This document shows positions 6,587 to 23,108 of a DNA stretch of 64,000 bases, one piece after another. Numbering within the stretch: the first letter of the stretch is position 1; the number at the start of each line of letters is the position of its first letter. The position numbers and the translations under genes are program-made. The notes below the pieces were generated by a model. The model was given only the letters and a program-made list of their open reading frames with translations, did no database searches and was not told the origin of the DNA. Source of the stretch: Escherichia phage ekra; sequence record MN850644.1, one strand, 5' to 3'.

Positions 6587-6592
6587 TAGTTA

Positions 6593-7090
6593 TCAAGCAC
6601 AATTTGCTTTCATTACCTTATGGATTCTTTTTTCAGCATCTTCATAAGTTTCTTTAGTAATAAACTTAATTGCTGCAATATTGGCATTGTAGAAGAGTCT
6701 GAGCTTCGAGTCAATCCTTTTTGTCATTACATCGAATTTATGTTGAAGGTTTGCTTCACCATAGACTAGGCCACCTTTTGTGTAGTAGGTCTGAATAATG
6801 TAAAAGTCAAAAAATTCTTTTCCAAAGCTCTCAATATCTTTTTTAATATACTCAGAAGAAGTCTCGTAAGTCATCCAATCACTCTCCTTAGTGACTACCT
6901 TCTTCCGAGTCTTCCCAGCAACTTTTCTTTTTGTCACACTGTTAAGCTGTTTCTTTCCGATATAATATTGTCCAGTCTTCTTACAGTGCACTAAATAGAC
7001 AAAGCCAAAATGTTTAGTGGGGTCAACTTCCCCACATAAAGATACCCAATGACCGTAGGTAGGGCAATTGCCAAATCCTTTAATCTTCAT
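6593..7090 (-). CDS. GIY-YIG-like endonuclease (putative homing endonuclease)
   Basis: 165-aa ORF with FVYLVHCKKTGQYYIGKK resembling the GIY-(x10)-YIG motif; located among replication genes. Confidence 0.4.
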   Translation of the reverse strand: MKIKGFGNCPTYGHWVSLCGEVDPTKHFGFVYLVHCKKTGQYYIGKKQLNSVTKRKVAGKTRKKVVTKESDWMTYETSSEYIKKDIESFGKEFFDFYIIQTYYTKGGLVYGEANLQHKFDVMTKRIDSKLRLFYNANIAAIKFITKETYEDAEKRIHKVMKANCA

Positions 7091-7587
7091 TCATAAGCTT
7101 CTCCGTGATTTGAAAACTCTTTATGTAGTTCTTCTCTTTTCTTTGTGACTGCATCTTTGGCATCTTCAATACTGTCAAAATACCCCAGAAAGTGAGATAC
7201 TCCGTGTGTCATAACTCTGGCCTTCCATTTTTGGTTAGCCTTATAGAAAGATACACCCTTAACTCCAGATGTGTTGTTGGAGTGTGTTCTTCTATTCCAA
7301 GAGTTTTCAGCTTGTGTGCAAACCCTTAGATTTAATCTCCGATTATCATTAGTAATACCGTTTCGATGGTCTACTCTGTTAGGTAGGAAACCGTCTGTGT
7401 ACAGGATTGCTAAATCATGAGCCATATAGGGTTTTCTTTTAATTTTTATCCTAATATAACCTCGCTTATGTGGTGTACCTGCAATGGAACCTATAACTGT
7501 TCTTTTAGCTGATTTCTTTATCCACGTAAAGACCCCTGTTTCGGGGTCATAGTGTAGATATTCTTTAAGTATCTGCTGAGTCAACAT
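7087..7587 (-). CDS. HNH endonuclease with AP2-like DNA-binding domain (putative homing endonuclease)
   Basis: ORF 7087..7611; HNH-like HRNGITNDNRRLNLRVCTQAENSWN and C-terminal AP2-like GVKGVSFYKANQKWKARV...GYFDSIEDA; N-terminus paralogous to ORF 17193..17702; start set to internal Met to limit overlap with exonuclease gene. Confidence 0.6.
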   Translation of the reverse strand: MLTQQILKEYLHYDPETGVFTWIKKSAKRTVIGSIAGTPHKRGYIRIKIKRKPYMAHDLAILYTDGFLPNRVDHRNGITNDNRRLNLRVCTQAENSWNRRTHSNNTSGVKGVSFYKANQKWKARVMTHGVSHFLGYFDSIEDAKDAVTKKREELHKEFSNHGEAYE

Positions 7588-8611
7588 TTGGAGTCCAACC
7601 ATACTTTTCAAATGAAAAAATATCTGATTTATTTCGCTCTTGATAAGCTAGGAAGAAATGCTGTTCCATTAACTCTAACGGCGTCTTTGTAACGGTCTGT
7701 CCATCCCATGACACATAGGTATAAGAGTCTTTTTTAGCATAAAGTTCATAGATAGCGTCAAGACACTCTTTGTAGGTCTCTTTACCCTCTAAAGCATTCA
7801 TCACAGCTACTTTACCAGCACCTTTTAGGCCGAAGTAGTTGTCTGCATTATCTCCAGCAACAGCCTGATAACACAAGAATTTAAAACCTACACCAACTGT
7901 TTTTGCAGCTTTTGGTTTTGATTTGATAGGGCAATCCCAGATATTACCAACATTATTATCAGCGATAAAAATTAGTGGTGATTTTTCATAAGTCATATCA
8001 ATACAATAAGTCCCTTCAGCTTGTCGAAGGTCTTTGTCAATACTCATAAGAGCAGCTTTCTTACCCATCTTTTCAGCTTTAGCAATTACGATTGAATCGG
8101 CTTCGAAGCCCCCCTTTAAGAGTTTGAACTCTGGTCTTGACAGGAGATACTCACGACAAGCAACTAAGTGTGTTGGTGTGACAGCATCTTTGCGGTTACC
8201 TTGATATTGGTGCTCGAGACCTTTAATGTCTTTATGTTTATGCACACCTTTCTCTGTTAAATAACCTACCCAAGTTCTCTCTTTACCAACAACCTTAAGC
8301 CATTCCTGAAGCACCTGTTGAGTAGCCATGATAGCTTCTTTTTCACTCTTAGCTTCTTTCCAAGTCTGTCTTTCCCATTCATCTTCATCAAATGTCAGGC
8401 CAAGTTCTTCCACAAGGATTCTCTGGTCTGCTAACCATCTTGCAGCATCTTTCGCATTATCAAATGGTTCAGATTCTTCTGCTGTGAGTTTATTGACATA
8501 TTTATATTTTGCTTTCTCAACTACACAAGCACCTTTATAGGCAATACTGTCAGAGTCAATAAAAACATGTGTAACTGAATCGGGAAGTTTTGTTAATGTG
8601 TACTTCTCCAT
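7565..8611 (-). CDS. 5'-3' exonuclease / flap endonuclease (T7 gene 6-like)
   Basis: 348-aa ORF; acidic clusters FIDSDSIAYKG, MSIDKDL, AGDNADNYFG resemble the T7 gp6 / FEN catalytic motifs; sits beside primase-helicase and SSB genes. Confidence 0.65.
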   Translation of the reverse strand: MEKYTLTKLPDSVTHVFIDSDSIAYKGACVVEKAKYKYVNKLTAEESEPFDNAKDAARWLADQRILVEELGLTFDEDEWERQTWKEAKSEKEAIMATQQVLQEWLKVVGKERTWVGYLTEKGVHKHKDIKGLEHQYQGNRKDAVTPTHLVACREYLLSRPEFKLLKGGFEADSIVIAKAEKMGKKAALMSIDKDLRQAEGTYCIDMTYEKSPLIFIADNNVGNIWDCPIKSKPKAAKTVGVGFKFLCYQAVAGDNADNYFGLKGAGKVAVMNALEGKETYKECLDAIYELYAKKDSYTYVSWDGQTVTKTPLELMEQHFFLAYQERNKSDIFSFEKYGWTPNVDSADT

Positions 8612-8673
8612 TATGGCTCTCCATATGAAAAAGCCCCATACTAAGTACAGGGCTTTAAAGTAACTTTTAGAGA

Positions 8674-9531
8674 TTAGTCTTCTGTATCGAAGTCTTCATC
8701 TTCTTCGTCATCTGGGTCTGGCAAATCTTCATCATCACCATCATCAGAAGCATTCGAAGGTTTATGGTCTGTTGCGTCTTCTTCAGTGATTTCACCGTTA
8801 TCTTCAACACCATCAAGACCAAGCATAGCCAGTTCATCTTCATCAAGTTCAGGTTCACCATTAGCACCGTTACCACCAGTGTAAGGTACAAGAGTATCAA
8901 TGATAAACTGTTCCTGAATAGGTTTTGTCAGAACATTGTTCTCAAAAGTGTAGAAGTGAGTAGAAAGAATCACACTACCAAAAGAACCGTTACCAACTGC
9001 GATATCTGGATGAATTACATCATAGTTCTTGTCATCTTCATGTTTATCAGATGCTTGAGCTTTGATTTTCTTCATCGGCTGCTTAACAGCTACACGCTTA
9101 CCATTTACTTCTTCAATCAGCATTACAGGGAATGACTGTTTAGCTGTCCATACAGCACCATCTTTATAAGCTGCTGCACGACTTACTTTCAAGATGTAGT
9201 AAGTGTCTGCTTCAAAAGGTGGCTTACAACCAAACTTCTCTTCAAAGTCATCTGCGTCAACTGCTTCAGTAGTAACTTTATCCCAGCCTTCTGGATTTTT
9301 CTTAGACTTAGTAAACTCTTTAAAGAGCTTGTTACCGTCTTCTGCCAGAATTGATACGCTGTAGTTACAATCTTTTCCTGGGAATTTTTTATCAATAGAC
9401 TTACCTTTTCCCGGACGTGGTGAAGTGTTCAGGTAATAAAACCAGACATCTTTCAGCAGGTAACGCAGAGTTTGACGTTCAGTACCGTTGTACTTCTCTA
9501 CCGGAGCTTTCATTTTAACAACTTTAGACAT
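8674..9531 (-). CDS. single-stranded DNA-binding protein (T7 gp2.5-like, acidic C-terminal tail)
   Basis: 285-aa ORF ending in a strongly acidic tail DDGDDEDLPDPDDEEDEDFDTED with aromatic residue near the C-terminus, as in gp2.5-type SSBs; replication-module context. Confidence 0.45.
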   Translation of the reverse strand: MSKVVKMKAPVEKYNGTERQTLRYLLKDVWFYYLNTSPRPGKGKSIDKKFPGKDCNYSVSILAEDGNKLFKEFTKSKKNPEGWDKVTTEAVDADDFEEKFGCKPPFEADTYYILKVSRAAAYKDGAVWTAKQSFPVMLIEEVNGKRVAVKQPMKKIKAQASDKHEDDKNYDVIHPDIAVGNGSFGSVILSTHFYTFENNVLTKPIQEQFIIDTLVPYTGGNGANGEPELDEDELAMLGLDGVEDNGEITEEDATDHKPSNASDDGDDEDLPDPDDEEDEDFDTED

Positions 9532-10005
9532 TATTTAAACCTCTATCTCAATTTATGAAGAGTACCAATTCTAATTTGTTGATACTCTATTGTCAAATAC
9601 TAATTACTGGAAGTTGTGCTTATCTTTAGAAGCTGCTTTACGTGCAGTTTTTCCAGTTCTTACACGTTTTTCTTCATAGTATTTTGCTGGTTTTCCAGCA
9701 GTGGCTTTTAAGGAATCCCCAAAAACTTTTTCAAATGCTTTAGAGTGTTTCATGATATTCTCCGATATACTTGATATTCAAACACATTTTCTTTAATTAT
9801 AAACAGCCAACTAATATTATGCTGAGGCAGTGCAATGATGACTGTAATCGTGCTTTGGCAGAAATCTTCTTTTATCTCAACTCCCCCATTGCATTTCATG
9901 AGGAGCATTCTATAGAACCTATCAACCTTTGTCAAACACTCTTCCTGAAATTTATTTAAACTCTTTTCTTCAAAGAAGGGTATGAACCCCTCTCTTTTAT
10001 AACTA

Positions 10006-11997
10006 TCACTCAGTTTCGAACGGGCAGTCATCTGCATCCTCACTTAATACAGGTGGAATCGTTGAACTTTGACGCTGTTCTTCAGTATAGACTTCACCAG
10101 TCTCACGGTCAAACACTTCATCCTCATAATGAGGTAAAGAGTCATCATAATGGTCTTCAGCTTCACCAATACCAAACTGCTGGCGAATATTTTCTGCTGC
10201 ACCATCAATATCAACACCACATCCAGAAGCTTTGATAAGACGTCCTGTATCTGGATTGTACCAAGTATGACCAGCAATACCTGTTGACTTACCATGACGA
10301 CGACACTTAGTTAACTTGATTTTTGTCAAGTTTTTCTTAACAGGGTCTGGGTCAACCTTGTTACGCATTAACAGGATGTTATTCATAGAAATCTGGAAAT
10401 ACGCACCAGAACCTTTGATATCCTCTTCAGAGATGTCTCCACCTTCAGAGTTGGCTTTCTGACCACCTGCACTCTTACGAACGTGACATACGTTTACCTG
10501 TGCATACTGGTAGCGTTTGCAACGACGCAATAGCTCAGACAAGACTTCCTCTTCATCCGTATCAGAACGTGACAGAGCCAACGTAATAGGGTCAAGAATA
10601 ATAATCTTACAGTCTAAACTGTTAACAAGGTAGTCAACAAACTCTAGCAGGTTATCTTGGTCAATTGCCCCTTGATGGTCAACGATATGGATACGACGAC
10701 CTTTAGACAGTTCTGCGTGTGCTCCTTTTAATTCATCCCAATCCCGTTCATCATAAGGAATCTCAGAAATCTGTTTGCTCAGGTGGATTGCACAGAGCAT
10801 CTCCATCAACTCTTCATAGGTATCTTCTACAGGAATTACACCGATATTATAGTCAGTTTCTTTCCAAGCGGAATAAATCATCTCACGAGTGTAAGCTGAC
10901 TTACCTACTGAGGATGGTGCTGCCAGAGTTGTAATCTCACCTAAACCATAACCACCATAAGTCAGTCTGTTCAAATCTCCGAAAGATTCTGGGAAAGGAA
11001 TCAATGGAATCTGACCACGATTCTTCATTGCCTCAAAACCATCTGCGAAGTTCTTGATACCAGCAGGACAGTAACGAGGTGCATTGTAGATACGCTGCTT
11101 AAATCCTTCCAGAACTGTATCTTTCTCTTTATAGAACTTTGTCCACCACTCGTTAAGGTCTTTTACACCTTCTGGATACTGGAATAAACGAACCTTCTCA
11201 ATAGGGAGAATACCAGCAGCCTCTTTGGTAGCTTTAGCACCTGCTTCATCGTTATCAAAGCACAAGTAAATCTCATTAAATGATGTAATGTACTGATAGT
11301 TGTCTTTGATAGACTTGATGTTTGCACCTGATGGAACAGATACGTGACAGTAATTCTTACGACGAGACTTGTCCTTAATCGCAAGAGAAGTCATATAGAT
11401 TGCTGTTGCACATTCCATCTCACCTTCCCAGATGAATAGACGGTTACCACCTTCTGGAGCAATCCATGAACCAAACATTGCCAGTTCACCTTTAATGTCT
11501 CCAACACCACCTGAAAAGTCTTTTAGTTTACCTCGTAGGTGTTCTTTTGGATGGTCTTCTGGGTAACGGTGACGAACACGGTAGCCAACATGTTCTAGCT
11601 TACCATCTTCATTACGTTTGTAAGTTGGATAGAAGTGCGCATCAATTTCACCGTCACTGTCAATGTCAATCTTAATACCCAAACGCTCAAGAACTTTTGC
11701 AGGAATCTTCCTGTCTTTCAAGTCCATTGCTTCTAGGTTTTCTTTTACATCGTCTAAATCCATTCCACGGAAAGTACGGTTTTTATTGTCTGAACCAGTA
11801 GAATAAGTGCTCACGATTTGTCCTTTATCAAAATCCCACTCTGGGAAACCTTTGTTACAACTAAAGCAAGTCATCGAATAAGAATCATCGTCATGATGAT
11901 AGATTGAACCAGCATCTGATGAACCACAACGTGGACATGCACAATGACCAATAAACTGACCAGCCTCTTTCAATTTACGACCTTTAGACATTAGCAC
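10006..11997 (-). CDS. bifunctional DNA primase-helicase (T7 gp4-like)
   Basis: 663-aa ORF; N-terminal Cys4 zinc ribbon (CACPRCGSSD...CFSC), central TOPRIM-like region, C-terminal DnaB-like helicase with Walker A GLGEITTLAAPSSVGKS and Walker B IIILD. Confidence 0.85.
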   Translation of the reverse strand: MLMSKGRKLKEAGQFIGHCACPRCGSSDAGSIYHHDDDSYSMTCFSCNKGFPEWDFDKGQIVSTYSTGSDNKNRTFRGMDLDDVKENLEAMDLKDRKIPAKVLERLGIKIDIDSDGEIDAHFYPTYKRNEDGKLEHVGYRVRHRYPEDHPKEHLRGKLKDFSGGVGDIKGELAMFGSWIAPEGGNRLFIWEGEMECATAIYMTSLAIKDKSRRKNYCHVSVPSGANIKSIKDNYQYITSFNEIYLCFDNDEAGAKATKEAAGILPIEKVRLFQYPEGVKDLNEWWTKFYKEKDTVLEGFKQRIYNAPRYCPAGIKNFADGFEAMKNRGQIPLIPFPESFGDLNRLTYGGYGLGEITTLAAPSSVGKSAYTREMIYSAWKETDYNIGVIPVEDTYEELMEMLCAIHLSKQISEIPYDERDWDELKGAHAELSKGRRIHIVDHQGAIDQDNLLEFVDYLVNSLDCKIIILDPITLALSRSDTDEEEVLSELLRRCKRYQYAQVNVCHVRKSAGGQKANSEGGDISEEDIKGSGAYFQISMNNILLMRNKVDPDPVKKNLTKIKLTKCRRHGKSTGIAGHTWYNPDTGRLIKASGCGVDIDGAAENIRQQFGIGEAEDHYDDSLPHYEDEVFDRETGEVYTEEQRQSSTIPPVLSEDADDCPFETE

Positions 11998-12184
11998 CTC
12001 TTCGTTGTAGTTCTGCCTTCAATCCATTTTCAATCTTGTCCAGTTCATGAATTTCATCTGCAATCTCTTTCCTTCGTGATTCAACTCTCTTAAGACGTTC
12101 AATCATTACCTCATTGGAAAGAGATGAGAGTTCCACTAAACGGTGGTCAATAACTTTAAAATTGTCTTTTACTCTCATCTTCAT
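11984..12184 (-). CDS. small coiled-coil protein
   Basis: 66-aa ORF overlapping primase-helicase start by 14 nt. Confidence 0.3.
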   Translation of the reverse strand: MKMRVKDNFKVIDHRLVELSSLSNEVMIERLKRVESRRKEIADEIHELDKIENGLKAELQRRGANV

Positions 12185-12192
12185 TCTCTCTT

Positions 12193-12936
12193 TTAAATCT
12201 TCAGGATAGCTCTTAGTTTGCTCTCAAGGTCTGCAAGAGTACCATTATTATGAATAATGTCACGCTCATATTTTGTAGAAATGCCATTTTCTGAAACATG
12301 TGATGAAACTTTGTCCACATTGTCTCTTTTTACTTCAATAGTTTGGTGTGCAAATCTACTCAGCCACTCAGCTTCAGAGTCAAACCTTAAATCACTGATT
12401 AAAACAACGCCTTCTTGATTTCTAAGTGAACAAACATCAAAGAAATTTACCATTCGTTTTTCAAGGTCTTTAGCCCAGAACTTGTCACCCATAACTTTTC
12501 GGATAACTTCAGTGCCCCAAATCTGTTGAATTTGTCTTGATGAAAATTTATACTTCTTGCTAAATCCCAGACGTGTTAATAGAGTCGGTTTAGCAACCTT
12601 CTTAAGCTCCATGATTAATCGTCCGGTTAACTCTGACATAAGCTTAAAATCCATATGGTAACGTTCGCCTTTGAAGGTGAACTCCATAGCTTCGGTAACT
12701 TTGAACATTAGTTCAGGATATGATAAGTCAAAAACCTGTGGAGTCTCTTTAGTTTCACCATACAGGTCATTCCAAGTCAGGTCAAATATCCTTGATGCAG
12801 ATAGCTTAAGGTTGTCTGCATAGGCCATTACTGCAACATTGTAGCCGTACTCATCCTCTAAGATGTTCTTCACAATCGAACATGAGGTGTCTTTTCCAGA
12901 ACGTGCCTTTCCAGTAAATGCAATAATATTACTCAT
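12193..12936 (-). CDS. deoxynucleoside monophosphate kinase (P-loop)
   Basis: 247-aa ORF with N-terminal Walker A IAFTGKARSGKDT typical of phage dNMP kinases. Confidence 0.6.
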   Translation of the reverse strand: MSNIIAFTGKARSGKDTSCSIVKNILEDEYGYNVAVMAYADNLKLSASRIFDLTWNDLYGETKETPQVFDLSYPELMFKVTEAMEFTFKGERYHMDFKLMSELTGRLIMELKKVAKPTLLTRLGFSKKYKFSSRQIQQIWGTEVIRKVMGDKFWAKDLEKRMVNFFDVCSLRNQEGVVLISDLRFDSEAEWLSRFAHQTIEVKRDNVDKVSSHVSENGISTKYERDIIHNNGTLADLESKLRAILKI

Positions 12937-12956
12937 TTTATCTCCCTTAATTACTA

Positions 12957-12982
12957 AAAAGCCCCCAACTAAGGAGGCTTGT
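12957..12982 (-). terminator. terminator-like hairpin with U-run (minus sense)
   Basis: GCCCCC / GGAGGC imperfect stem 12964..12982 followed in minus sense by TTTTT. Confidence 0.4.
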
Positions 12983-12997
12983 AAGATTTATAAAGAC

Positions 12998-13798
12998 TTA
13001 GTGCAGTTGCTCAGCAGACTCTTTTTCAGCCATAGCTGAGATTTGCTTCACAAAATCATCACCGAAGTTAATGCGTAGTTTTTCTTCAATGATTGAAGCA
13101 CCAATGTTCACCAAAACATCATTGATGGCTTGCATACTAACGCCACCAGTCATCTCCTCAATGAACTCAATACTTACACCCATCATCTGTGAAAGTTGGA
13201 TTAGTGCAACGATATTCATCATCGTAGAGATAGCTGGAATCATCAGTGCAACTTTCACCTGAAGTGGTTCTATATCAGCTACAGAGTCATTTTCAACAGC
13301 TTCTTCCAAAGAATCTTTGGTTTGCTGGATAATTTCTTGGATTCGTGGGTTTAGTTCTTCTACCCCCCAATCAAGTTTTTCATATCGTGACAGCTTCTCT
13401 TCCATTCGCTTCTCAAGAGCAGCCATAACAGCACTTGTTGATGAAATTATCATGGAAATTAACTCATTATTACCTAATGACAGTAATAAGTCCTTTTCTT
13501 CAGAGTTAAGGGAGATATAGTCATTTTTCTGCATCTCCTTAAAAATGAACTCTGCAAGAGCATCAACACCTACGACTATAGATGCTAAAGCAAGTGTAGT
13601 GTCTGTCAACATCATGTTAACCTGTTCTGCAAAAGCACCGTTATCAGACTTGTCTTCAGGCAAGTTATAGCTTGAAGGCATAAACTGTTCTGTGTAGTTG
13701 TTCCCACGAAGAATCATAGCCATGCTTTCTACGGCATTGATTAAAAATGCTTCGTCAATACCTTTTTCTTCAAGCATCTTTTCTACATCGATATTCAT
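12998..13798 (-). CDS. hypothetical protein
   Basis: 266-aa ORF, acidic, no motif recognised. Confidence 0.4.
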   Translation of the reverse strand: MNIDVEKMLEEKGIDEAFLINAVESMAMILRGNNYTEQFMPSSYNLPEDKSDNGAFAEQVNMMLTDTTLALASIVVGVDALAEFIFKEMQKNDYISLNSEEKDLLLSLGNNELISMIISSTSAVMAALEKRMEEKLSRYEKLDWGVEELNPRIQEIIQQTKDSLEEAVENDSVADIEPLQVKVALMIPAISTMMNIVALIQLSQMMGVSIEFIEEMTGGVSMQAINDVLVNIGASIIEEKLRINFGDDFVKQISAMAEKESAEQLH

Positions 13799-13799
13799 A

Positions 13800-14222
13800 T
13801 TATTTCTCTCTCAGTTGGTTAAGTTTCTTTCTAGAACATTTTAAGTTTTCGGATGAAGAAAAGTCAAGTGTCTTTTCAGAACGTGGATAATAGTGCCTAT
13901 CCCAAGAAGTTTCAACATCGTTAATCAGTGACGCTAGATTACACAGGTCTGTACCACTTTGCAACCTCTTTTTAAGAGAATCTAGTAAAGCAACTGTGTC
14001 TTTAGCTTTACGTCTCGCTGTAGCAACATCTTTCATATGCTCAAACACAGAGCATTTTAAGTCATCTTCATAGTTTTCAGATAACTCTATTTCGTGTTGT
14101 ATATCAACCATTCTCCTGTGATGGTGAGCATATTCCCGTTGAGCAGCAATGTCAAGTTCTTCCAACTTCTGCAAAGCTCTAACAAAGTCAGCTATGTCTG
14201 GGTGAACAAACATTTTCTGCAT
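13800..14222 (-). CDS. hypothetical protein
   Basis: 140-aa ORF, first gene of minus-strand block next to divergent intergenic region. Confidence 0.4.
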   Translation of the reverse strand: MQKMFVHPDIADFVRALQKLEELDIAAQREYAHHHRRMVDIQHEIELSENYEDDLKCSVFEHMKDVATARRKAKDTVALLDSLKKRLQSGTDLCNLASLINDVETSWDRHYYPRSEKTLDFSSSENLKCSRKKLNQLREK

Positions 14223-14395
14223 GTAAGCCTCTTTTAAGTAACTATTTAGTTTTAATCTTTTATCTTAACGTATTCTATACGTTATACTTTAAAGCTTTTT
14301 AAAAGCTATTAAATAATCTTTTAAGAGTTTTAAAGTATCTGTATAGTTAAACTGTTAAGTAACCTTTTAAGTAAAAACCCACTTCGCAAAGATTA

Positions 14396-14440
14396 ACACC
14401 TTGTCAAGTGCATTGTCAACTTGCTTTTTATAATTTTTTG
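14396..14440. promoter_or_regulatory. conserved intergenic motif CACCTTGTCAAGTnCnTTGTCAAC...TTTTTnTAA (tandem TTGTCAA boxes) in divergent promoter region
   Basis: Near-identical ~40-nt motif recurs at 56716..56760, also in a divergent intergenic region; contains -35-like TTGTCA and a TATAAT hexamer. Confidence 0.45.
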
Positions 14441-14479
14441 CAGTAATGTATGAGGTTAATGATTTTAGAGGGAGTAAAA

Positions 14480-17179
14480 ATGGAAAACGTAGATTTTAAA
14501 AACTTACATTTAGTTGGTGATACAGAAACTGATGGTTTACTCCTTGAGTTCACTAAAGTGCACGTAATGGCTTTCGCAGACTATAAATCTGACGATGAAG
14601 AGCCACCTGTATGGGTCTTTACAGATGAGCCTATCCTCGGTCACAAGTACACTAAGTACATCAAGGGCGGCTTACGTGAAGGTGTTGAATTTGCGTTAAA
14701 GGCAAAACGTCTTTGCATCCATAATGGTCTCGGCTATGACTGGTGGGTTTTCAATCACATTGCGCCTGATTTATGGAACTTTGATAATCCAAAATGTAAG
14801 CCGTGGAGTAATTTCTTTCAGGATTCTCTTATCCAGTCTCGTGTTCAGTGGATGGATAGGCCAACCCCAAAGGGTTATAAAGGTGCTCATGGTTTGGCTG
14901 CATGGGGTGCTCGTGTTGGTGTCCGTAAACCAGAGATTGAACATTGGGGTGTGTGGAATGCAGAAATCTTCACTCGTGTTGTAGAAGATATCCGTATTAA
15001 CGCCAAAACTAAACGGGCACTTGATAATGAGTATCTCAAGCTTAAGAAGTGTGGCATAGATACTTATGAAACCTATATGCGAGCTAAAGAAACATCTTTC
15101 TGGATGAGTCAACAAGCTATCAATGGTTGGAAAGCTGATAAGGAGCTTATGGAGTTCCATGTAAAGGAACTTGACAAGTTGACTAATGAGCTTGCTTCAG
15201 AGGTTGAACCACATCTTCCTCCAACTATTAAGACCAAAGGTAAAGTGACTGGAGAAGAGTTTGCAAAAGCTTGGAATGAGTATGTTGAAACATTTGGTCA
15301 TGCAGATGGACTGAAGAGGATTACCAAGTACCCTAAGACAAAGTATCGTCAGCAGGTACGTAATGGTGAGATGCAGACATATGAAATCAAGCCATTTGGT
15401 AAGCCAACTACAAAGATTTTTAACATTGAAAAGAGAAATTGCTATACACCAACCAACTCTGTAACTGGTGAAGAGTACAAGGAGGGTTTTGTAGCAATGA
15501 AGGATGCTCGTGAAATTTGCAATGAGTTGAATGCAAAGATTGGTAAGAAATGCAAAGACTGGAAGCCAGTAAAAACAGTCAAAACTGTGAAGTACTATAA
15601 CAGTCACGTTGTTAACCACTTTGAACTTGAGTCAAGTCGCTACACAGGTTTGATTGATGCACCGTATACACCAATTGAGTTTGAAGTTTCTCGTATGACT
15701 CAGGTAGCAGTTGTTAAAGACTACTTGAAATCAGTTGGTTGGATTCCAGATGACTGGAACTACAAGAAAGACTCAGATGGTCGCCCTGTCAAAGTTTGTC
15801 GTTTCAAAGACAATAAAAAGATGATTACAAAACATCCTAAGTGGCAGGAAATGGTTGAGCGGTGTGGTTTGAGCTATGTTGAGCACGAAGGTGTACAGTA
15901 TATTGAGCATAACTGGTCTGTGAAGAAGTACACAGATTTGCTTGAGCCTTGCTTAATCCGTACTTCACCAAAACTTACTGAATCATCTTATGATACGATT
16001 GAAGGTGAGCTTGGACAGAAGATTGCGAAATACTACACTTTGATGCACAGACGCAGAACTATTGAGAACTCAAAGGATGATGAAAAAGGTTGGTTGAACC
16101 AGATTCGTCCTGATGGTCGCCTTAGTGCTGGTGCAATGGTGTTTGGTACTTCAACTGGACGTATGACACAATATGGTATTGTAAACGTACCGTCTGGTGC
16201 TGCTGTCTATGGGGAACCAATGAGGGCAGTGTGGATTTGTGAGGAAGGGACTAACGTTGTCTCTGTAGACATGAACTCAGCCCAGCTAGTTCTTCTTTGT
16301 AACTTTATGGGTGACAAAGACTTCACCAAAGCGGTAACGCAAGGTAAAGAAGAGATTGAGTTCATTCGTCAAGAAGATGGACGCTATTACTGCAAACATT
16401 TTGATGAGTATCTCAACCCAGAAATTGATAAGTACCTTCGCTATGACTCTGAGAATGACCTGTACGTTGTCTATTCAGGGACTGATGCACATACACTGAA
16501 CAGTATTTACTTTAGCTTGAATGATGAGCAGGATATCTTGACTTGTCGAGCTACTCAGGATGAGAATCTTCTTCATGAGATTAGCAAAGGTCGTAAGAAA
16601 GCTAAGAATGGTATCTATGCACTGCTGTTCGGTGCAGGTGATGAGAAGTTTGCTAAGACGATTAAAGCTGCAACTACTCAGGAAGGAGCACTGACTAAAC
16701 AGACTTACTTTATTCGTTTGCCTAAAATTAAGAAGCTGCTAGATGACTTGGAAGCTGACTACAAAGCAACTAAAAAGGCACTTGAAGAGGTGTTTGGTAA
16801 GACTGCTGCAATCTCTAAAGGGGGTTTTGTAAAGGTTGCTGGAGCTTGGTTGTGGTGTAAATCTCCACATAAGTTATTGAATTATTTGCTCATGGGTTCA
16901 GAGGCTCAGATTCAAAATGAGGCGATTAACCTTGCTTGTAGAAGAGCATGTGAAGAAGGGTTGACAAAATTAAATGGACGAAAACCAGCAATTGGTGCTA
17001 GGCTTTTGCTGGCATACCACGATGAAAACAGTTGGGAGTGCCCAGAAAGTATGACTCAAGAAGTTAAAGCCATAACTGACTGGATGTATGGTCAGGCATC
17101 TAAGAATTTAGGTTTGAAGAGTGAGACGCTTGTAACTGGCACAGGTAAGGTTGGTAAGAGCTGGTTGGAAGTGCATTGA
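14480..17179 (+). CDS. DNA polymerase, family A (T7 gp5-like) with 3'-5' exonuclease domain
   Basis: ORF 14450..17179; Exo I motif VGDTETDGL near N-terminus, long palm/fingers region; start moved to ATG 14480 (MENVDFKN) with GAGGGAG RBS. Confidence 0.85.
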   Translation: MENVDFKNLHLVGDTETDGLLLEFTKVHVMAFADYKSDDEEPPVWVFTDEPILGHKYTKYIKGGLREGVEFALKAKRLCIHNGLGYDWWVFNHIAPDLWNFDNPKCKPWSNFFQDSLIQSRVQWMDRPTPKGYKGAHGLAAWGARVGVRKPEIEHWGVWNAEIFTRVVEDIRINAKTKRALDNEYLKLKKCGIDTYETYMRAKETSFWMSQQAINGWKADKELMEFHVKELDKLTNELASEVEPHLPPTIKTKGKVTGEEFAKAWNEYVETFGHADGLKRITKYPKTKYRQQVRNGEMQTYEIKPFGKPTTKIFNIEKRNCYTPTNSVTGEEYKEGFVAMKDAREICNELNAKIGKKCKDWKPVKTVKTVKYYNSHVVNHFELESSRYTGLIDAPYTPIEFEVSRMTQVAVVKDYLKSVGWIPDDWNYKKDSDGRPVKVCRFKDNKKMITKHPKWQEMVERCGLSYVEHEGVQYIEHNWSVKKYTDLLEPCLIRTSPKLTESSYDTIEGELGQKIAKYYTLMHRRRTIENSKDDEKGWLNQIRPDGRLSAGAMVFGTSTGRMTQYGIVNVPSGAAVYGEPMRAVWICEEGTNVVSVDMNSAQLVLLCNFMGDKDFTKAVTQGKEEIEFIRQEDGRYYCKHFDEYLNPEIDKYLRYDSENDLYVVYSGTDAHTLNSIYFSLNDEQDILTCRATQDENLLHEISKGRKKAKNGIYALLFGAGDEKFAKTIKAATTQEGALTKQTYFIRLPKIKKLLDDLEADYKATKKALEEVFGKTAAISKGGFVKVAGAWLWCKSPHKLLNYLLMGSEAQIQNEAINLACRRACEEGLTKLNGRKPAIGARLLLAYHDENSWECPESMTQEVKAITDWMYGQASKNLGLKSETLVTGTGKVGKSWLEVH

Positions 17180-17192
17180 TGGTGTTGAAATG

Positions 17193-17702
17193 ATTACAGA
17201 AATTCGTCTTAAGGAGCTATTGGACTACGACCCCGAAACAGGGGTCTTTACTTGGAAGTTTAGAGAAGGTAATGCAAACTTTAACTCTAGATTTGGAGGT
17301 AAGAGGGCTGGAAACTACAGAACAAATACTGATGGACACAAGTCAGTTCAGTTGCTGATTGATGGAAGGGGTTACCAAGCAAATCGTTTAGTTATCTTGT
17401 ATATGGATGGATATCTACCTGATAAAACCTTACAGGTTGACCATAAGAATGGGGACGGTTGGGACAATAGGTACTTGAATTTAAGGGTTTGTACAGCTTC
17501 ACAAAACTCTTGCAATCGGTCAAGAGAGTCCCCATCTGGGTTGCCAAAAGGTGTACAGAAGATAAGTAAAAGGTTTCGAGCAATGATACGTTTACAAGGT
17601 AAAAACTATCATCTTGGTATGTTTGACACACCAGAAGAAGCCCATAAAGCTTACTGTGAAGCTGCTATTAAACTCCACGGAGAGTTTGCAAAACTATCTT
17701 GA
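17193..17702 (+). CDS. HNH endonuclease with AP2-like domain (putative homing endonuclease), paralog of 7087..7587
   Basis: ORF 17151..17702; LKELLDYDPETGVFTWKFR N-terminus parallels LKEYLHYDPETGVFTWIKK of the other copy; HNH-like VDHKNGDGWDNRYLNLRVCTASQN; AP2-like C-terminus. Confidence 0.6.
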   Translation: MTEIRLKELLDYDPETGVFTWKFREGNANFNSRFGGKRAGNYRTNTDGHKSVQLLIDGRGYQANRLVILYMDGYLPDKTLQVDHKNGDGWDNRYLNLRVCTASQNSCNRSRESPSGLPKGVQKISKRFRAMIRLQGKNYHLGMFDTPEEAHKAYCEAAIKLHGEFAKLS

Positions 17703-17753
17703 CAAGGTGCTCAGGGAAGAGTACCTTATACAATATCTTGTATAGGAGGACTT

Positions 17754-17963
17754 ATGAGCCATCGTGGAAGAACCCATGCAGCGATGATGAAAGGCGCTTC
17801 AAAGGAAACTATCAAGAACCGTAAGCAGAAGTTGTTTGAGAGAATGAACAGGTTAATTGACAATTCATCTCTTTCAGGTTCTGAGAAGGTTTTCTTGAAA
17901 GGTAATCTGAAAAGCATTGCACAAGAACTTATTGACATTGAGTATTGGAGACATCAAAAATGA
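17754..17963 (+). CDS. hypothetical small protein
   Basis: 69-aa ORF. Confidence 0.3.
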   Translation: MSHRGRTHAAMMKGASKETIKNRKQKLFERMNRLIDNSSLSGSEKVFLKGNLKSIAQELIDIEYWRHQK

Positions 17964-18172
17964 CACTTGCAGACGTTATCCAACAACTTCATGATAACTG
18001 CTATACTCCAGAGTTGATTCAGGAGATGCTTATTGTAGTGATGCCTAGTAAGTTCGTAAAAGGTTTTAATAATGACTCTTTAAGGTCTGCGCATATCCTT
18101 ATTGTTGATGGTAAGATTGCAAGGGACCGTACTGGAGTCCTTAAGGGCGAACGTATTAATATTAACCTCTGA
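17945..18172 (+). CDS. hypothetical small protein
   Basis: 75-aa ORF. Confidence 0.3.
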   Translation: METSKMTLADVIQQLHDNCYTPELIQEMLIVVMPSKFVKGFNNDSLRSAHILIVDGKIARDRTGVLKGERININL

Positions 18173-18190
18173 ATATTGGAGATACCGAAA

Positions 18191-18346
18191 ATGAAACGCA
18201 AAGTTAAGTTTTTTAATTTATATGGAAGAGTTGGTAAAGGTTTTGACTGGCAACTGTTACGCTCAAATGTTAAAAGCAATGAATTAGCACCACTTATCAT
18301 TCATTATCGACGTACATACAGAGAAGTAGAGCATCGTGAACAGTAA
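18191..18346 (+). CDS. hypothetical small basic protein (51 aa, below ORF-track cutoff)
   Basis: Hand-read ATG at 18191 preceded by GGAGATA RBS; MKRKVKFFNLYGRVGKGFDWQLLRSN... Confidence 0.25.
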   Translation: MKRKVKFFNLYGRVGKGFDWQLLRSNVKSNELAPLIIHYRRTYREVEHREQ

Positions 18347-18359
18347 ACAGGGGTGTATT

Positions 18360-18596
18360 ATGTGGAAATCAGTAATTGCGCTTGGTGTTATTTTTCTATC
18401 TGGCTGCAACCCTTCTTATGAAGATAAAAATGCTTCTTACAGCCTCCCACCAGAGATGCAAGATTGCAGAGTATACAAGTTACATGGTGATGCTATAAGC
18501 AGAGATATTGTTGTTGTCAGATGTCCAAACTCCCAAACAACAACATCTTATAGCTATGGCAAAAATGGTCAATCACACACTACGGTTATTGAGTGA
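18360..18596 (+). CDS. putative lipoprotein
   Basis: ORF 18336..18596; from Met9: MWKSVIALGVIFLSGCNPS, a signal peptide with lipobox-like LSGC. Confidence 0.4.
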   Translation: MWKSVIALGVIFLSGCNPSYEDKNASYSLPPEMQDCRVYKLHGDAISRDIVVVRCPNSQTTTSYSYGKNGQSHTTVIE

Positions 18597-18606
18597 GGGT
18601 TTCACG

Positions 18607-18813
18607 ATGGAAGTCCTAGTAAACTATATCTATTGTTATGATGTTGTTCACTCTACTACAACGGTAGCTCAACGTAACCCAATCGTCCCACGAGAAGGTG
18701 AGTTGGTTCGCATTGATGGTTGGACTTACACTGTGGAAAGCATCATTCATAAGTTTGATGTTGCTGGTGATGTTCAAGTTATTGACGTAGAAATTGGTGG
18801 CAAGAGGAAATGA
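18607..18813 (+). CDS. hypothetical small protein
   Basis: ORF 18508..18813, likely start at internal ATG 18607 (MEVLVNY) after GAGGGT. Confidence 0.3.
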   Translation: MEVLVNYIYCYDVVHSTTTVAQRNPIVPREGELVRIDGWTYTVESIIHKFDVAGDVQVIDVEIGGKRK

Positions 18814-19001
18814 ACAAAGAAGATAAGCATAAAAATGCTGTACGGACTCCTGATGGAAAGATTCAGTCCTTCGTCCTGACAGTTGGTGGAAAGCCATTTC
18901 GTTGCCACTGCGGAGCAAACTGTTTTCATAAACCAGATAAAAATGACTTAGAGCTTTACGCATGTAATGCTTGCAATACTTGGTATCACTCAGAGGAATA
19001 A
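18810..19001 (+). CDS. small zinc-ribbon protein
   Basis: 63-aa ORF with CHCGANC...CNACNTW Cys pairs. Confidence 0.35.
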   Translation: MNKEDKHKNAVRTPDGKIQSFVLTVGGKPFRCHCGANCFHKPDKNDLELYACNACNTWYHSEE

Positions 19002-19003
19002 AA

Positions 19004-20107
19004 ATGACAATCCTATACAAACAAAATAAAGATGGCTCTTTCAACGTCTGGTCATGCGTTGCTGTAGGTGACAAAGTTATTACAACCTATGGTAAAGAAA
19101 ATGGCAAGATGATGTTTGAAGAGTACACAGCAGAACCGAAAAACATCGGTAAAAAGAATGAGCGTAACGCTGAACAGCAAGCTCTCTTTGAAGTTGCTGC
19201 TAAGTATAAAAAGCAAGTTGACCGTAAAGGCTACGCTTACACAAAAGAGTCTGCAAAGAATACTGAGAAAGTAGGTGTACAACTTGCTCATGATGCTGCA
19301 AAGGTTAGTCATGCAAAGTATCTGAAGTTCCCTGCTGATGCTCAACCAAAACTTGATGGTGTACGTTGTAGAATTTCAAGACACTTAAGTATTGGCAGTG
19401 TATTTACAGCATATTCTCGTGAGAATACTGTTTACAAAATCCCTACTGAACTAATACCTGACATTATGGCAATGTTAAGGCTCCACAAAGATGTTGATGA
19501 ATTTGATGGAGAGATTTATGCTCATGGGTGGGACTTAGAAGATATTGTCTCCATGATTAAAAATGAAGACAATCCTGACAGACACTTACTTAAGTTCTAC
19601 TGGTATGATATCTGTGACAGTACTAAAACGTGGCCTGAGCGTAGAGATATTATTGAGACTTCACCATTGAATGACTTTAGAGACGGCTGTAAAGTTGTCC
19701 CTGTTAAATCTCGTCGTGTAAATTCTTGGGAAGAGTTTGATGAAGCTCATGATAAGTGGGTTGAAGCTAAGTTTGAAGGTGCAATGTACCGTTCAATCTC
19801 TGAAGAATCTTTCTACGAGTGTTGTCACCGTTCATACTTCTTGATTAAGCACAAGAAGATGCACACTGAAGAGTTTAAAGTGACTGGTGTAAAGACCGAT
19901 AAACGTGGTCATGGTAAGTTCGTTGTAGAGACTCTTCCTAACGTCTTTGTAGATGTTTCATGGAAGACTACTCACGAGAAGAAACAGTATCTTGCTGAAC
20001 ACCCTGAAGAGTTTATCGGGAAACCTTTAACGGTTCAGTTCCAGAAGATGACTCGTAAGGGGTCTTTACAGTTCCCTGTAGGGCTAGTTATTAGGGATTA
20101 TGAATAA
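19004..20107 (+). CDS. ATP-dependent DNA ligase
   Basis: ORF 18971..20107; adenylation motif I PKLDGVRC (KxDG), size ~368 aa typical of minimal phage ligases; start at ATG 19004 with GAGGA RBS. Confidence 0.75.
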   Translation: MTILYKQNKDGSFNVWSCVAVGDKVITTYGKENGKMMFEEYTAEPKNIGKKNERNAEQQALFEVAAKYKKQVDRKGYAYTKESAKNTEKVGVQLAHDAAKVSHAKYLKFPADAQPKLDGVRCRISRHLSIGSVFTAYSRENTVYKIPTELIPDIMAMLRLHKDVDEFDGEIYAHGWDLEDIVSMIKNEDNPDRHLLKFYWYDICDSTKTWPERRDIIETSPLNDFRDGCKVVPVKSRRVNSWEEFDEAHDKWVEAKFEGAMYRSISEESFYECCHRSYFLIKHKKMHTEEFKVTGVKTDKRGHGKFVVETLPNVFVDVSWKTTHEKKQYLAEHPEEFIGKPLTVQFQKMTRKGSLQFPVGLVIRDYE

Positions 20108-20110
20108 ACT

Positions 20111-20257
20111 ATGTTCAGTACAGTCATTCTGTTTATACTGGTTGTCTTTGTATTGTCATACGTTGCAAGTAAGCTTTTGGACACATCTTTTGCAATGGGT
20201 GTCTTGTTTACAATCTTTTGTTTCGTGACACATATAGCTATCAGAACTTTTTTATAA
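20111..20257 (+). CDS. small transmembrane protein (48 aa), tentative
   Basis: Hand-read plus-strand ORF MFSTVILFILVVFVLSYVASKLL...; preferred over the antisense 76-aa ORF 20098..20328 because flanking genes are plus-strand. Confidence 0.25.
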   Translation: MFSTVILFILVVFVLSYVASKLLDTSFAMGVLFTIFCFVTHIAIRTFL

Positions 20258-20324
20258 AAAGTTGTTGACATAGAAAATTTGGTGAGTATACTGAGCAGCA
20301 TAAACCAACGGGTACTCACCAACA

Positions 20325-20650
20325 TCACTTAAGAGTCTTTGAAAAGGGTTTTTTAAGTGATGTGGGGCGAGGCTCGGTGAGGTGGGGTAAGGCATAGTGC
20401 GGTGCTGTTTGGTATGGGTAGTTAGTCTCAGCTACATTAAAATGAGACTTACCTTTTTAAAAGGTCTTTAAACAGGGTCTTTTAATAAGGTTGTGTGATG
20501 TGATGTATGGTGCTGTGGAGTTTGGTTAGGTCCGGTCAGGTATGGTATGGTGATGTGAGGTATGGGTGGATGGTAGTAGCCACGTTAAAAATCTACCAAG
20601 TTTCTAAAGAGTCTTCTGTTGAGGGTTCTTTACAAACAACTTAACAATCA
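20325..20650 (+). repeat. composite repeat cluster A: two full units plus one degenerate box (GGTCTTT double box + (GGTNN)n pentanucleotide tract + hairpin)
   Basis: Box AAGAGTCTTTGAAAAGGGTTTTTTAA at 20329, GT-rich tract with 5-nt phase 20355..20420, hairpin AGTCTCA-12nt-TGAGACT 20424..20449; second unit 20453..20598 (box TTTTTAAAAGGTCTTTAAACAGGGTCTTTTAA, tract, hairpin TGGTAG...CTACCA). Confidence 0.8.
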
Positions 20651-20655
20651 ACTAA

Positions 20656-21261
<606 letters not shown>

Positions 21262-21263
21262 TT

Positions 21264-21704
21264 ATGAATACGAAAGCATTAGCAGCAAAGTTTAGTTACG
21301 GTGACACTGTATCACATTCTGAGATGGACACCTTCTTAGGTATTGTGAAGCCAACTTATCAAGGTGACATTGTTAAGTACGAAGATGAAATGAAGGCTTA
21401 TGCGCTTACACGTCTAAACCGACTTGAGAAGTTTATTGAGAAGCTTCTTAAAGAAGAGAAGATTTATCTGGTTGCTTCAATGGGTGTTGGTTATCGTGTG
21501 GTTGAACCTAAGCATCAAGCAACTATTGCAAAACGAAAAATGTCTGGTAAAATTGGTCGTGCTTTAAAGCAAGCCACTCAAGCGATTGAGAATGTGAACA
21601 CTATGGCACTTAGCCATCAAGAACGCTCACGACTAATTGAACAGCAAAACCATTTAGCTGCTATGAAAGCTAACATTAACAAGCAACGTAGAAAACCTTT
21701 CTAA
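21264..21704 (+). CDS. hypothetical protein flanked by repeat clusters
   Basis: 146-aa ORF, basic C-terminus (NKQRRKPF). Confidence 0.45.
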   Translation: MNTKALAAKFSYGDTVSHSEMDTFLGIVKPTYQGDIVKYEDEMKAYALTRLNRLEKFIEKLLKEEKIYLVASMGVGYRVVEPKHQATIAKRKMSGKIGRALKQATQAIENVNTMALSHQERSRLIEQQNHLAAMKANINKQRRKPF

Positions 21705-21715
21705 GTTAACTAGGT

Positions 21716-21738
21716 AGCCTCTTCGGAGGCTCCTTTTT
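21716..21738 (+). terminator. rho-independent terminator (AGCCTC-TTCG-GAGGCT + T-run)
   Basis: Perfect 6-bp stem, tetraloop, followed by CCTTTTTAAAA. Confidence 0.55.
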
Positions 21739-22135: not shown

Positions 22136-22217
22136 TAAAATCTGTTGACAAGTCAGGTGTTATAGCTTATTTTTATACTCAATGTAATACAAAATTTAAT
22201 ATAACTTTGAGGTCATT

Positions 22218-22601: not shown

Positions 22602-22602
22602 T

Positions 22603-23107: not shown

Positions 23108-23108
23108 T

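Follow-up and report, generated by a model that had tools for sequence, protein, structure and literature searches.

The stretch analyzed here, called the window throughout, is the 64,000-nucleotide (64 kb) record MN850644.1 of Escherichia phage ekra, and the element in question is a short box that recurs between its genes both within repeat clusters and beyond them. The phage is a Felixounavirus, a myophage of the Felix O1 type; over 13000-17000 the window shares 98.7% identity with Escherichia phage heid, and about 260 records are related to it. Its orientation is reversed relative to Felix O1 numbering. The genes lie in four strand blocks:

1-14222, minus strand, first block
14480-25701, plus strand, second block, with the DNA polymerase gene first
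25738-56589, minus strand, third block, with morphogenesis genes and 25 tRNAs (49636-54555)
56818-64000, plus strand, fourth block

The spacers 14223-14449 (region A) and 56590-56817 (region B) are the two divergent-transcription regions of the genome and correspond to those between Felix O1 genes 96/97 and 40/41. Both have the same architecture and nearly equal lengths (227 and 228 nt).

Recurrence and phasing of the box

The initial annotation had taken GGTCTTT and AGTCTTT boxes of the repeat clusters to recur in other intergenic regions as a genome-wide signal, a candidate phage promoter or transcription-factor site, and quoted three strings as examples. Each string is present once: CTTTTAAGAGTTTTAAAG at 14318-14335, where it had been placed, TCTTAAAAGGCTTTTAAGA at 56611-56629 rather than from 56618, and CTCTAAAAAGACCTAAAAAGGTCTTT at 52304-52329 rather than from 52290, so that two positions were off by 7 and 14 nt. 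The literal GGTCTTT is found only in the third string (at 52323, with its complement at 52310), the other two being merely box-like. Outside the clusters the two heptamers and their complements occur 5 times between genes, where shuffles that preserve dinucleotides average 2.2 ± 1.4 and 34 out of 500 contain 5 or more, with densities of 1.34/kb in intergenic and 0.87/kb in coding DNA. The heptamer as literally given was dropped as a signal, because its count is not above chance and it failed the test for intergenic enrichment.

The element common to the cited sites is the near-palindrome C-T(2-5)-A(2-5)-G. Outside the clusters 21 copies lie between genes, versus 6.3 ± 2.4 in shuffles (a count reached in none of 500), and the density is 5.6/kb in intergenic versus 0.87/kb in coding DNA, a 6.5-fold difference. 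Under the annotation of Felix O1 itself the corresponding densities are 3.78 and 0.88/kb, and in Erwinia phage MM7 motif density is 6-fold higher between genes, without exceeding shuffles. An unbiased search of intergenic 11-mers, allowing up to 2 mismatches, gave as its largest family one seeded by ATCTTTTAAGA at 14316, within the region first flagged; it has 21 sites outside the clusters versus shuffle maxima of 11-19 (25 shuffles). Hence what held up was a box-like motif that recurs beyond the clusters, is enriched between genes relative to AT- and dinucleotide-matched expectation and is conserved, rather than the heptamer itself.

Conservation was scored across genera by comparing box columns with the rest of the same spacers, which gave 86 versus 69% (p = 0.013) and 93 versus 81% (p = 0.037). 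Neighboring boxes are mostly 11-12.5 nt apart, center to center, and 8 adjacent pairs are spaced by 9-13.5 nt versus 0.11 ± 0.34 in shuffles (0 of 500). The boxes show no orientation bias and the arrays no fixed distance to gene starts. About 13 phased arrays are present in the window, including:

14287-14335, array of divergent region A
56600-56695, array of divergent region B
52236-52329, array in a longer tRNA spacer
52895-52926, array in a longer tRNA spacer
53744-53775, array in a longer tRNA spacer
50730-50749, array in a longer tRNA spacer
8653-8672, a further array
20322-20491 and 21731-22040, arrays heading five repeat units

Hairpins of the tRNA spacers, the gene-41 leader and the repeat clusters

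Each array folds into one stem-loop in which the outer boxes pair and the middle box forms the apex, with z-scores from -2 to -5; note that near-palindromic boxes pair regardless of function and that these scores partly restate the motif. In all arrays except that of region A, the sense stems contain 32 G·U pairs versus 2 A·C 1 × 1 mismatches, a count to which the cluster copies contribute as paralogues and so not independently. An excess of G·U over A·C is expected of RNA and not of a DNA palindrome. The tRNA-spacer arrays lie 2-5 nt from tRNA 5′ ends, and the hairpins there and in the leader of gene 41, together with that gene, are:

52231-52318, minus strand, 26-bp helix by tRNA-Leu(UAG), with 5′ arm 52318-52293 and 3′ arm 52256-52231, ending 2 nt before the tRNA
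52310-52329, competing small hairpin AAAGACC..GGTCTTT with a hypervariable loop
52893-52927, minus strand, 16-bp hairpin formed by three boxes, with tRNA-Arg(UCU) starting 4 nt downstream
53741-53778, minus strand, hairpin CUCCCUUAAAGAG..CUUUAAAGGAG with apex UUCUUACGAG, downstream of tRNA-Asp
50715-50752, minus strand, hairpin UAAGGAUUCU-UACG-AGAGUCCUUA in the tRNA-Gln/tRNA-His spacer
56600-56690, minus strand, gene-41 (DUF5681) leader hairpin, long and imperfect, about 33 bp, with boxes at 56600, 56612, 56621, 56669 and 56683
56218-56589, minus strand, gene 41, encoding the DUF5681 protein and adjoining region B

Covariation was found at three of these loci. The tRNA-Leu helix, which includes the third of the originally quoted sites, is paired in 98.6% of 364 cells of an alignment comprising 14 different sequences, taken from reference phages and public viral contigs, whereas slid partner columns, used as a control, pair in 35-67%. 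Eight of its pairs vary one-sidedly by wobble (G·U/A-U/G-C or U-A/U·G), one has changed on both sides from U-A to G-C, and the window sequence contains 7 G·U pairs. The tRNA-Arg hairpin (52889-52935) folds with -17.4 kcal/mol on the sense strand (z -3.9) versus -5.7 on the antisense strand and exists as a short allele (window) and long alleles (Felix O1 and Mijalis). The long alleles of the latter two phages differ by three compensatory double changes (GGGUA/UACCC versus GAGCA/UGCUC and ACAU/AUGU versus AUAU/AUAU).

The gene-41 leader hairpin, within which the second quoted site lies, has the apex AGATATC..GATATCT (56638-56657) and a fold of -28.1 kcal/mol (z -2.9). Among 10 unique sequences, pair 44:112 is UA in 5, CG in 3 and UG in 2, pair 40:114 is AU in 7 and GU in 3, and pair 45:111 is UA in 9 and UG in 1, variants that are tolerated only in the minus-strand RNA. 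These two-sided and wobble changes in the tRNA-Leu helix, the gene-41 leader and the tRNA-Arg alleles, together with the G·U asymmetry, are the marks of a conserved structured RNA.

The two remaining tRNA-spacer hairpins were analyzed by folding and comparison with Felix O1 and Mijalis. That downstream of tRNA-Asp (53735-53785) gave -13.3 kcal/mol in the sense (z -2.8) and -17.5 in the antisense direction and is kept in both phages. The tRNA-Gln/His hairpin gave -16.8 kcal/mol (z -5.2) and -15.9, respectively, and one of its A-U pairs is G·U in both phages.

The repeat clusters contribute two further types of hairpin:

20322-20366, plus strand, cluster hairpin type 1 (CAUCACUUAAGAGUCUU..GGGUUUUUUAAGUGAUG), downstream of the promoter at 20265, with a second copy at 21868-21904
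21731-21771, plus strand, cluster hairpin type 2, with further copies at 20451-20491 and 22000-22040

The first copy of type 1 folds with -21.2 kcal/mol sense (z -4.2) and -17.5 antisense and the second with -12.6 (z -4.1) and -6.1. Among 15 unique copies the arms are conserved and the loop is variable, one copy having a 30-nt loop insertion. In type 2 the two GGTCTTT boxes are the arms of a single hairpin, in which G·U wobble pairs join UUAAAAGGUCUU to GGGUCUUUUAA. It was folded at 21725-21775 (sense -16.0 kcal/mol, z -2.0; antisense -9.5) and at 20445-20495 (sense -13.5, z -2.5; antisense -9.7). Each copy has 3-4 G·U pairs, and in about 19 unique copies the arms hardly change, the loop comprises 4-6 variable nt and the outer stem alternates between CCUU/AAGG and UCUU/GAGG. 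The starting module of each repeat unit thus belongs to the same motif family as the dispersed boxes, which bears out the earlier link between the units and an ordinary module.

The repeat unit itself (20258-20600, 21705-22217) consists of the box hairpin, about 60 nt of period-5 GGTNN sequence (GGTGA GGTCG GGTGC GGTCA GGTCA GGTGA GGTTC GGTAT at 21925-21964) and a second hairpin, GGGTAGTTAGTCTCAGCTAC or GGATGGCAGTAGCC..CTGCCA. The window has five units and Felix O1 has one; a near-consensus promoter, TTGACA-N16-TATACT, precedes the locus at 20265. Its complementary strand is rich in C and poor in G, and no Rfam family matches the locus, which looks like an expandable non-coding RNA locus.

Rfam covariance models gave only tRNAs at the gathering threshold, no match at E ≤ 1 in 14150-22300, and for the tRNA-Leu hairpin only sub-threshold chance matches to generic hairpin models. 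Intrinsic terminators are also a poor description of the arrays, the stems being A/U-rich with G·U pairs and lacking a U-run.

Several other features were observed in the tRNA region. Four tRNA spacers (53520-53740, 54148-54225 and 54303-54393, minus strand) contain an inverted repeat, CAGAAGACC(G/A)...(C/T)GGTCTGG, that closes 50-60 nt and folds no better than shuffles (z about -1). They adjoin a 471-residue open reading frame (ORF) at 54721-56136 (DUF2828 plus DUF7788, an 'RNA-binding protein' in RefSeq) for which no relative of solved structure was found. Another inverted repeat, ..TTATCTTTGTAGATAAGC.. / ..GCTTAATAACTTATCTACAAAGATAATT.. (53374-53395 and 53490-53515), flanks about 100 nt upstream of tRNA-Lys(UUU). 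Weak tRNA-like remnants at 53577-53627 and 52593-52667 (minus strand) score 22-23 bits, below threshold, and suggest decayed tRNA genes in the longer spacers. In Citrobacter phage Mijalis (KY654690.2, 58000-68500) comparison of ARAGORN output with the feature table placed the deposited features of the tRNA region 58 nt off the sequence.

The divergent regions and the readings of the box

Promoters were sought as sigma-70 sites of the form TTGACA, 16-18 nt, TAnnnT with A-rich upstream tracts, and all such sites are predictions. With the boxes of region A they are:

14287-14335, minus strand, box array: CTTTAAAG at 14287, CTTTTTAAAAG at 14295, CTTTTAAG at 14318 and TTTTAAAG at 14328
14267-14283, no strand assigned, AACGTATTCTATACGTT, a small palindrome or hairpin with the ribosome-binding site on one side and the box array on the other
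14231-14238, minus strand, box CTTTTAAG over the Shine-Dalgarno sequence of the minus-strand gene 13800-14222 (minus-strand reading CTTAAAAGAGGCTTACATG)
14364-14371, minus strand, box CTTTTAAG, standing alone in that leader; AACCTTTTAAGT recurs identically at 56680 in the other divergent region
14390-14419, minus strand, predicted sigma-70 promoter of the gene-97 operon, with -35 TTGACA at 14419-14414 and an A-rich tract upstream
14407-14402, minus strand, second TTGACA of the gene-97 promoter
14398-14390, minus strand, extended -10 TGTTAATCT of the gene-97 promoter, after an 18-nt spacer
14421-14449, plus strand, predicted promoter of the DNA polymerase gene (TTGCTT, 17 nt, TAATGT)
56711-56739, minus strand, predicted sigma-70 promoter P41 (TTGACA 56739-56734, 17 nt, TAGGCT 56716-56711)
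56727-56722, minus strand, second TTGACA copy of P41
54590-54715, minus strand, two predicted sigma-70 promoters, with TTGACA at 54702 and 54611 and TTTTAAAAAG-type tracts directly upstream

The arrays have no -35 or -10 partners of their own, the TTGACA-N16-18-TAnnnT sites being separate elements. The arrays sit downstream of predicted sigma-70 promoters or inside tRNA spacers, and those of the divergent regions therefore fall into predicted leaders of roughly 160 nt (gene 97) and 115 nt (gene 41). In 13500-23000 promoter-like matches numbered 23, versus 21.7 ± 5.4 in shuffles. In the gene-97 promoter TGnTA(A/G)TCT and TTGACA are kept in three genera, and the homologous spot of MM7, TGTCAAGT, reads TTGACA-N17-TACATT. 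The DNA polymerase promoter keeps both hexamers (TTGCTT-N17-TA(A/G)(T/G)GT) around a spacer that varies between genera, and the -10 of P41 keeps its T-A-n-n-n-T pattern in the variants TAGCCT, TAGTGT, TAAGTT and TATAGG. The right-hand end of both divergent regions is ACACCTTGTCAAGTnnnTTGTCAAC, a minus-strand pair of TTGACA 12 nt apart preceded by an A-rich tract. This pair (CACCTTGTCAAGTnnnTTGTCAAC on the plus strand, at 14401-14419 and 56721-56739) is kept across genera, and its second TTGACA lies inside the predicted promoter spacer and has no -10 partner.

The predicted P41 matches the P41 of Whichard 2010 (PMC3185647), the sole promoter recognizable in the two divergent regions according to that genome paper, which states terminator read-through and temporal regulation to be unexplained. 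The literature searched on Felix O1 promoters, transcriptomes, late promoters, start mapping and stem-loops yielded nothing relevant besides that paper, and in the Bas63 PhageMaP preprint the intergenic sites of Bas63 were not probed. The promoter reading of the boxes was rejected, since they lack hexamer partners and the predicted TTGACA promoters are located elsewhere. Strand-specific G·U stems, wobble and compensatory changes, and loops that vary strongly while the arms stay constant likewise fit poorly with the proposed promoter or transcription-factor site, and what the repeat units and the dispersed boxes have in common is probably a recurrent conserved signal that is neither a promoter nor a classical transcription-factor site. 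The exception is the flagged site at 14240-14400, where invariant box cores leave room for a protein-binding role.

The region A array is predicted to form a single hairpin in the predicted leader of the gene-97 operon, and by analogy with the other arrays and from this fold it may act as RNA. The nucleotides between its boxes vary (AG, AA, GG, TC or AC after CTTTTAAG), and the strict invariance of the box cores suggests a factor that may read sequence beyond pairing. The adjacent palindrome AACGTATTCTATACGTT shows a compensatory change from C-G to T-A in Mooglevirus (ATGTATGTTATACAT), pairs 132:148 and 134:146 having changed on both sides; being symmetric, it does not identify the strand or the molecule. 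The box at 14231-14238 is ordinary ribosome-binding-site context. A 12-mer, AAGATAAAAGAT, occurs in both divergent regions in opposite orientations (14252-14265, minus strand, and 56624-56637, plus strand), and at the corresponding place of MM7 (4190-4225) TATCT is found five times.

The reading that we favor, at about even confidence, is that the boxes mark a family of cis-acting A/U-rich RNA stem-loops that punctuate polycistronic transcripts. The closest working analogue is the set of early RNase III sites of phage T7 (R0.3, R0.5, R1 and R1.1). These too are families of similar irregular hairpins in transcribed spacers, located after early promoters and between cistrons, and both families would punctuate polycistronic RNA. 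Irregular two-turn hairpins in a leader or spacer that would be transcribed are predicted at gene 41 (about 33 bp, with an asymmetric internal loop) and tRNA-Leu (26 bp), the others having 10-16 bp, and the gene-41 hairpin resembles the T7 sites in its succession of lower stem, asymmetric internal loop and upper stem. The Felix-type stems, 10 to about 33 bp in length, are mostly A/U with many G·U pairs, and their cleavage by RNase III would be by analogy.

Several observations weigh against this reading, besides the limits on fold scores and G·U counts given above. Promoters, transcript starts and processing are predictions. The T7 sites have no sequence similarity to the Felix-type stems; they share CAAGGU..GGCCUUUAUGAUU, are richer in G+C (about 55% A+U), and contained no CU(2-5)A(2-5)G box in R0.3 to R1.1 when extracted at what we take to be their positions. 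In both divergent regions the strand opposite to the leader gives the slightly stabler fold, with -30.2 versus -28.1 kcal/mol in region B and, for 14275-14350 of region A, -22.0 (z -6.0) on the plus versus -17.3 (z -4.4) on the minus strand. Region A also gives no strand signal (1 G·U versus 1 A·C), its box cores are invariant among 20 unique sequences from three genera, which makes covariation uninformative, and its long helix loses the outer 3 bp in Mooglevirus and Suspvirus. In MM7 the genome-wide motif count is not above shuffles (11 versus 8.4 ± 2.8), and the hairpins made by the boxes of its divergent regions are weak, with 7 bp and z about 0.

Some of these points favor a DNA-level explanation close to the transcription-factor idea of the initial annotation, in which the boxes are operator or architectural sites that control the divergent promoters and are bound by a phage regulator (e.g., HTH_3 or DUF5681), a host nucleoid protein or the alpha C-terminal domain (alpha-CTD) of RNA polymerase. 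Because the box cores are sequence-invariant, we regard such a role as a serious rival in the two control regions, if an unlikely explanation overall. The boxes are palindromic and spaced by 11-12.5 bp, about one helical turn, and the cores in regions A and B preserve sequence and not merely pairing. The flexibility and ready deformation of T(n)A(n) junctions count toward an operator; intrinsic curvature was set aside, T(n)A(n) tracts being of the non-bent phasing type. In MM7, 5 of the 11 intergenic boxes sit in two divergent regions that make up 8% of intergenic DNA, where CTTTAAAG/CTATAAAG pairs 14 nt apart recur in both. Searches of Pfam and PHROGs for candidate regulators gave only two, the others being proteins of unknown function: the HTH_3 protein encoded at 22778-23107 and the DUF5681 protein of gene 41. 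The latter has an AT-hook-like KKGQSGNPSGRPKGSRNK stretch at its N-terminus, with a GRP core between basic residues, and is a lead for an A/T-tract binder. Against an operator, the C and the G of a box stand at a distance that ranges between 6 and 9 nt, an uncommon variation in a protein site, and the half-sites leave too little room between them for a classic HTH dimer. The motif also occurs in tRNA spacers and the repeat locus with RNA-type G·U pairs, wobble intermediates and variable loops. A by-eye comparison with consensus sequences that we took for those of IHF, Fis, H-NS, CRP and DnaA, made without a formal scan, gave no fit.

An improbable alternative is that there is no single element and that ordinary signals stand side by side in AT-rich spacers, such as a terminator U-tract followed by an A-rich ribosome-binding region and a Shine-Dalgarno G, or UP-like tracts. 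A minority of the isolated boxes are indeed such signals: UP-like A/T tracts, terminator U-tracts or Shine-Dalgarno flanks. Thus GCCCCTTTTAAGAGG at 28749 is a terminator tail fused to a Shine-Dalgarno sequence, CTTAAAAGAGG at 14231 is a ribosome-binding site, and tracts of the TTTTAAAAAG type precede TTGACA by 3-5 nt at 54702, 54611, 56205, 56739 and 14419 (minus strand) and 20265 (plus strand), with 54702, 54611, 56205 and 20265 counting for this alternative. The MM7 count, which does not exceed dinucleotide shuffles, fits it as well. The placement typical of an UP element, with the A/T tract near -40 to -60 and immediately before the -35, accounts for roughly 6-8 isolated boxes, however, and not for the 13 phased arrays, and terminator tails or loops only for those at 21716-21740, 28749 and 38616. 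Arrays without an adjacent gene, terminator or -35 (14287-14335, 56600-56695, 52231-52318, 52893-52927, 53741-53778 and the clusters) are left over, and the tight spacing, covariation and cross-genus invariance go unexplained.

Slightly less probable still, we think, is that the boxes serve primarily as recombination cassettes, short homologies that shuffle gene and tRNA modules, with any RNA role secondary. The precedent is the promoter early stem-loop (PeSL) of T4-type phages, a strong sigma-70 early promoter plus a terminator stem-loop (PMC2839356), which as a cassette marks the borders of variable modules and takes part in modular shuffling (PMC2839356, PMC4122927). The box hairpins are likewise repeated stem-loops at variable-module borders that behave as crossover points. 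Compared with Felix O1, the window carries 1.7 kb of additional DNA, made up of two ORFs (20659-21704) and four repeat units, and this insertion both begins and ends within box hairpins. The junctions also differ in their homing-endonuclease and tRNA modules, and all four combinations of the tRNA-Arg hairpin alleles with the downstream modules (intact or HNH-interrupted tRNA) exist, so that each allele is found with either module. Unlike PeSLs, the arrays have no promoter component, and their stems are A/U-rich without a U-tract. Exchange would need no selection for pairing, nor the invariance seen in the non-variable regions A and B, and it is compatible with the RNA stem-loops rather than opposed to them.

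In the Felix O1 counterpart of 52812-52888 (25940-26020), the start of the HNH ORF45 (ATGCGGGTTCGAGTCCTG, T-arm-like) breaks into tRNA-Arg(UCU) behind the anticodon arm; the window tRNA is intact. The window also lacks two further HNH genes of Felix O1, ORF44 and ORF47, with clean break points at 53160/53212 and 51901/51903.

Least probable is a phage-specific middle or late promoter read by a modified RNA polymerase, or an unwinding element of a replication origin in region A, which is flanked by the DNA polymerase gene and the primase-helicase operon, coincides with a turn of GC skew and has AT-rich 12-13-mers after tandem promoters in the neighborhood of T7-like replication genes, as well as ATCTTTT-type units that loosely recall what we take to be the oriC 13-mers. 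GC skew follows the direction of genes and transcription in the window, is uninformative about an origin, and the origin was dropped accordingly; for a promoter there is no -10-like partner and no consistent distance or orientation to genes, conventional TTGACA promoters are already present, and boxes inside tRNA spacers are paired as RNA. Transcription timing in Felix O1 is not known and P41 alone was recognized in the divergent regions, which would leave room for such promoters, but the phage has no known sigma factor or polymerase-modifying gene (PMC3185647).

At the edge of the window, a tandem repeat of CTATATAGTATATAGTAA occurs at 63929-63974 (within 63795-64000). Just past that end Felix O1 has 1.6 kb without an annotated gene (12306-13927), dense in CTTAACA/TAACAAG repeats about 10-11 bp apart and in CTCTTWWAAG boxes. 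This may be a genome-end, packaging or origin region.

Related elements and a proposed role in RNA processing

Dispersed intergenic RNA hairpins are a known kind of element, and the present family appears undescribed, no description having been found in the literature searched for this phage group. The REP/BIME elements of enterobacteria are similarly short imperfect palindromes dispersed in transcribed intergenic DNA. REPs form RNA-stabilizing hairpins and are also recombination substrates, and they are G+C-rich chromosomal elements tied to RAYT transposases. The box hairpins differ in being A/U-rich, phage-borne and located at specific functional places (leaders and tRNA flanks), and no RAYT-type transposase was noticed among the annotations read. 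UP elements resemble the TTTTAAAAAG-type tracts in the position of their A/T tract and differ from the phased arrays, which have no adjoining -35.

The boxA of lambda nut and rrn was also considered, since GGTCTTTTAACAAGG (21756) and CTCTTAAAAG resemble TGCTCTTTAACAA and CGCTCTTAAAAA, which we take to be the boxA sequences, and protection against Rho would be an advantage to an array of tRNAs or non-coding RNA that is not translated. The GCTCTT core has C at position 2, however, where the box has G (GGTCTTT), and the nucleotides before CTTAAAAG (the flanking CT) are not conserved between genera in region A. Moreover, boxA acts single-stranded, the box here is paired in a hairpin and no boxB partner was defined. 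Antitermination was therefore dropped.

In the mechanism that we propose for the RNA stem-loops, the signature CUUU(U)AA(A)G, usually within (R)UCUUUWAAGR, would mark hairpin arms and apices, and two or three boxes 11-12.5 nt apart would make one hairpin. The hairpins would be encoded in the transcribed untranslated parts of the genome, namely the leaders that precede both leftward operons at the divergent control regions, the longer tRNA spacers and the starting segment of every repeat unit. We infer that the arrays are transcribed from the predicted promoters and function in processing, in which case they may act as endonucleolytic processing signals, end-stabilizing signals or both, of the RNase III or RNase E type. 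Such punctuation would separate or protect tRNAs, non-coding units and mRNA leaders. As the arm sequence is kept beyond pairing, a sequence-reading factor may be involved, and the hairpins, as dispersed repeats, may also serve as crossover points for module exchange.

A much bolder and improbable extension is dedicated RNA recognition, in which a phage or host factor would read CUUUWAAG-armed hairpins and thereby coordinate tRNA release, maturation of G/U-rich non-coding RNAs that form an expandable family, and expression of both divergent operons, the same repeats driving module exchange. If true, this recognition system would supply the missing temporal control in a phage without a known sigma factor or polymerase modifier.

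For annotators the results are a caution that the boxes should not be called promoters. For Felix O1, a classic Salmonella typing and biocontrol phage, they direct attention away from the initiation of transcription and toward the processing and stability of RNA, where the hairpins can be tested, and the hairpins would explain where gene and tRNA modules are exchanged among roughly 250 sequenced relatives.

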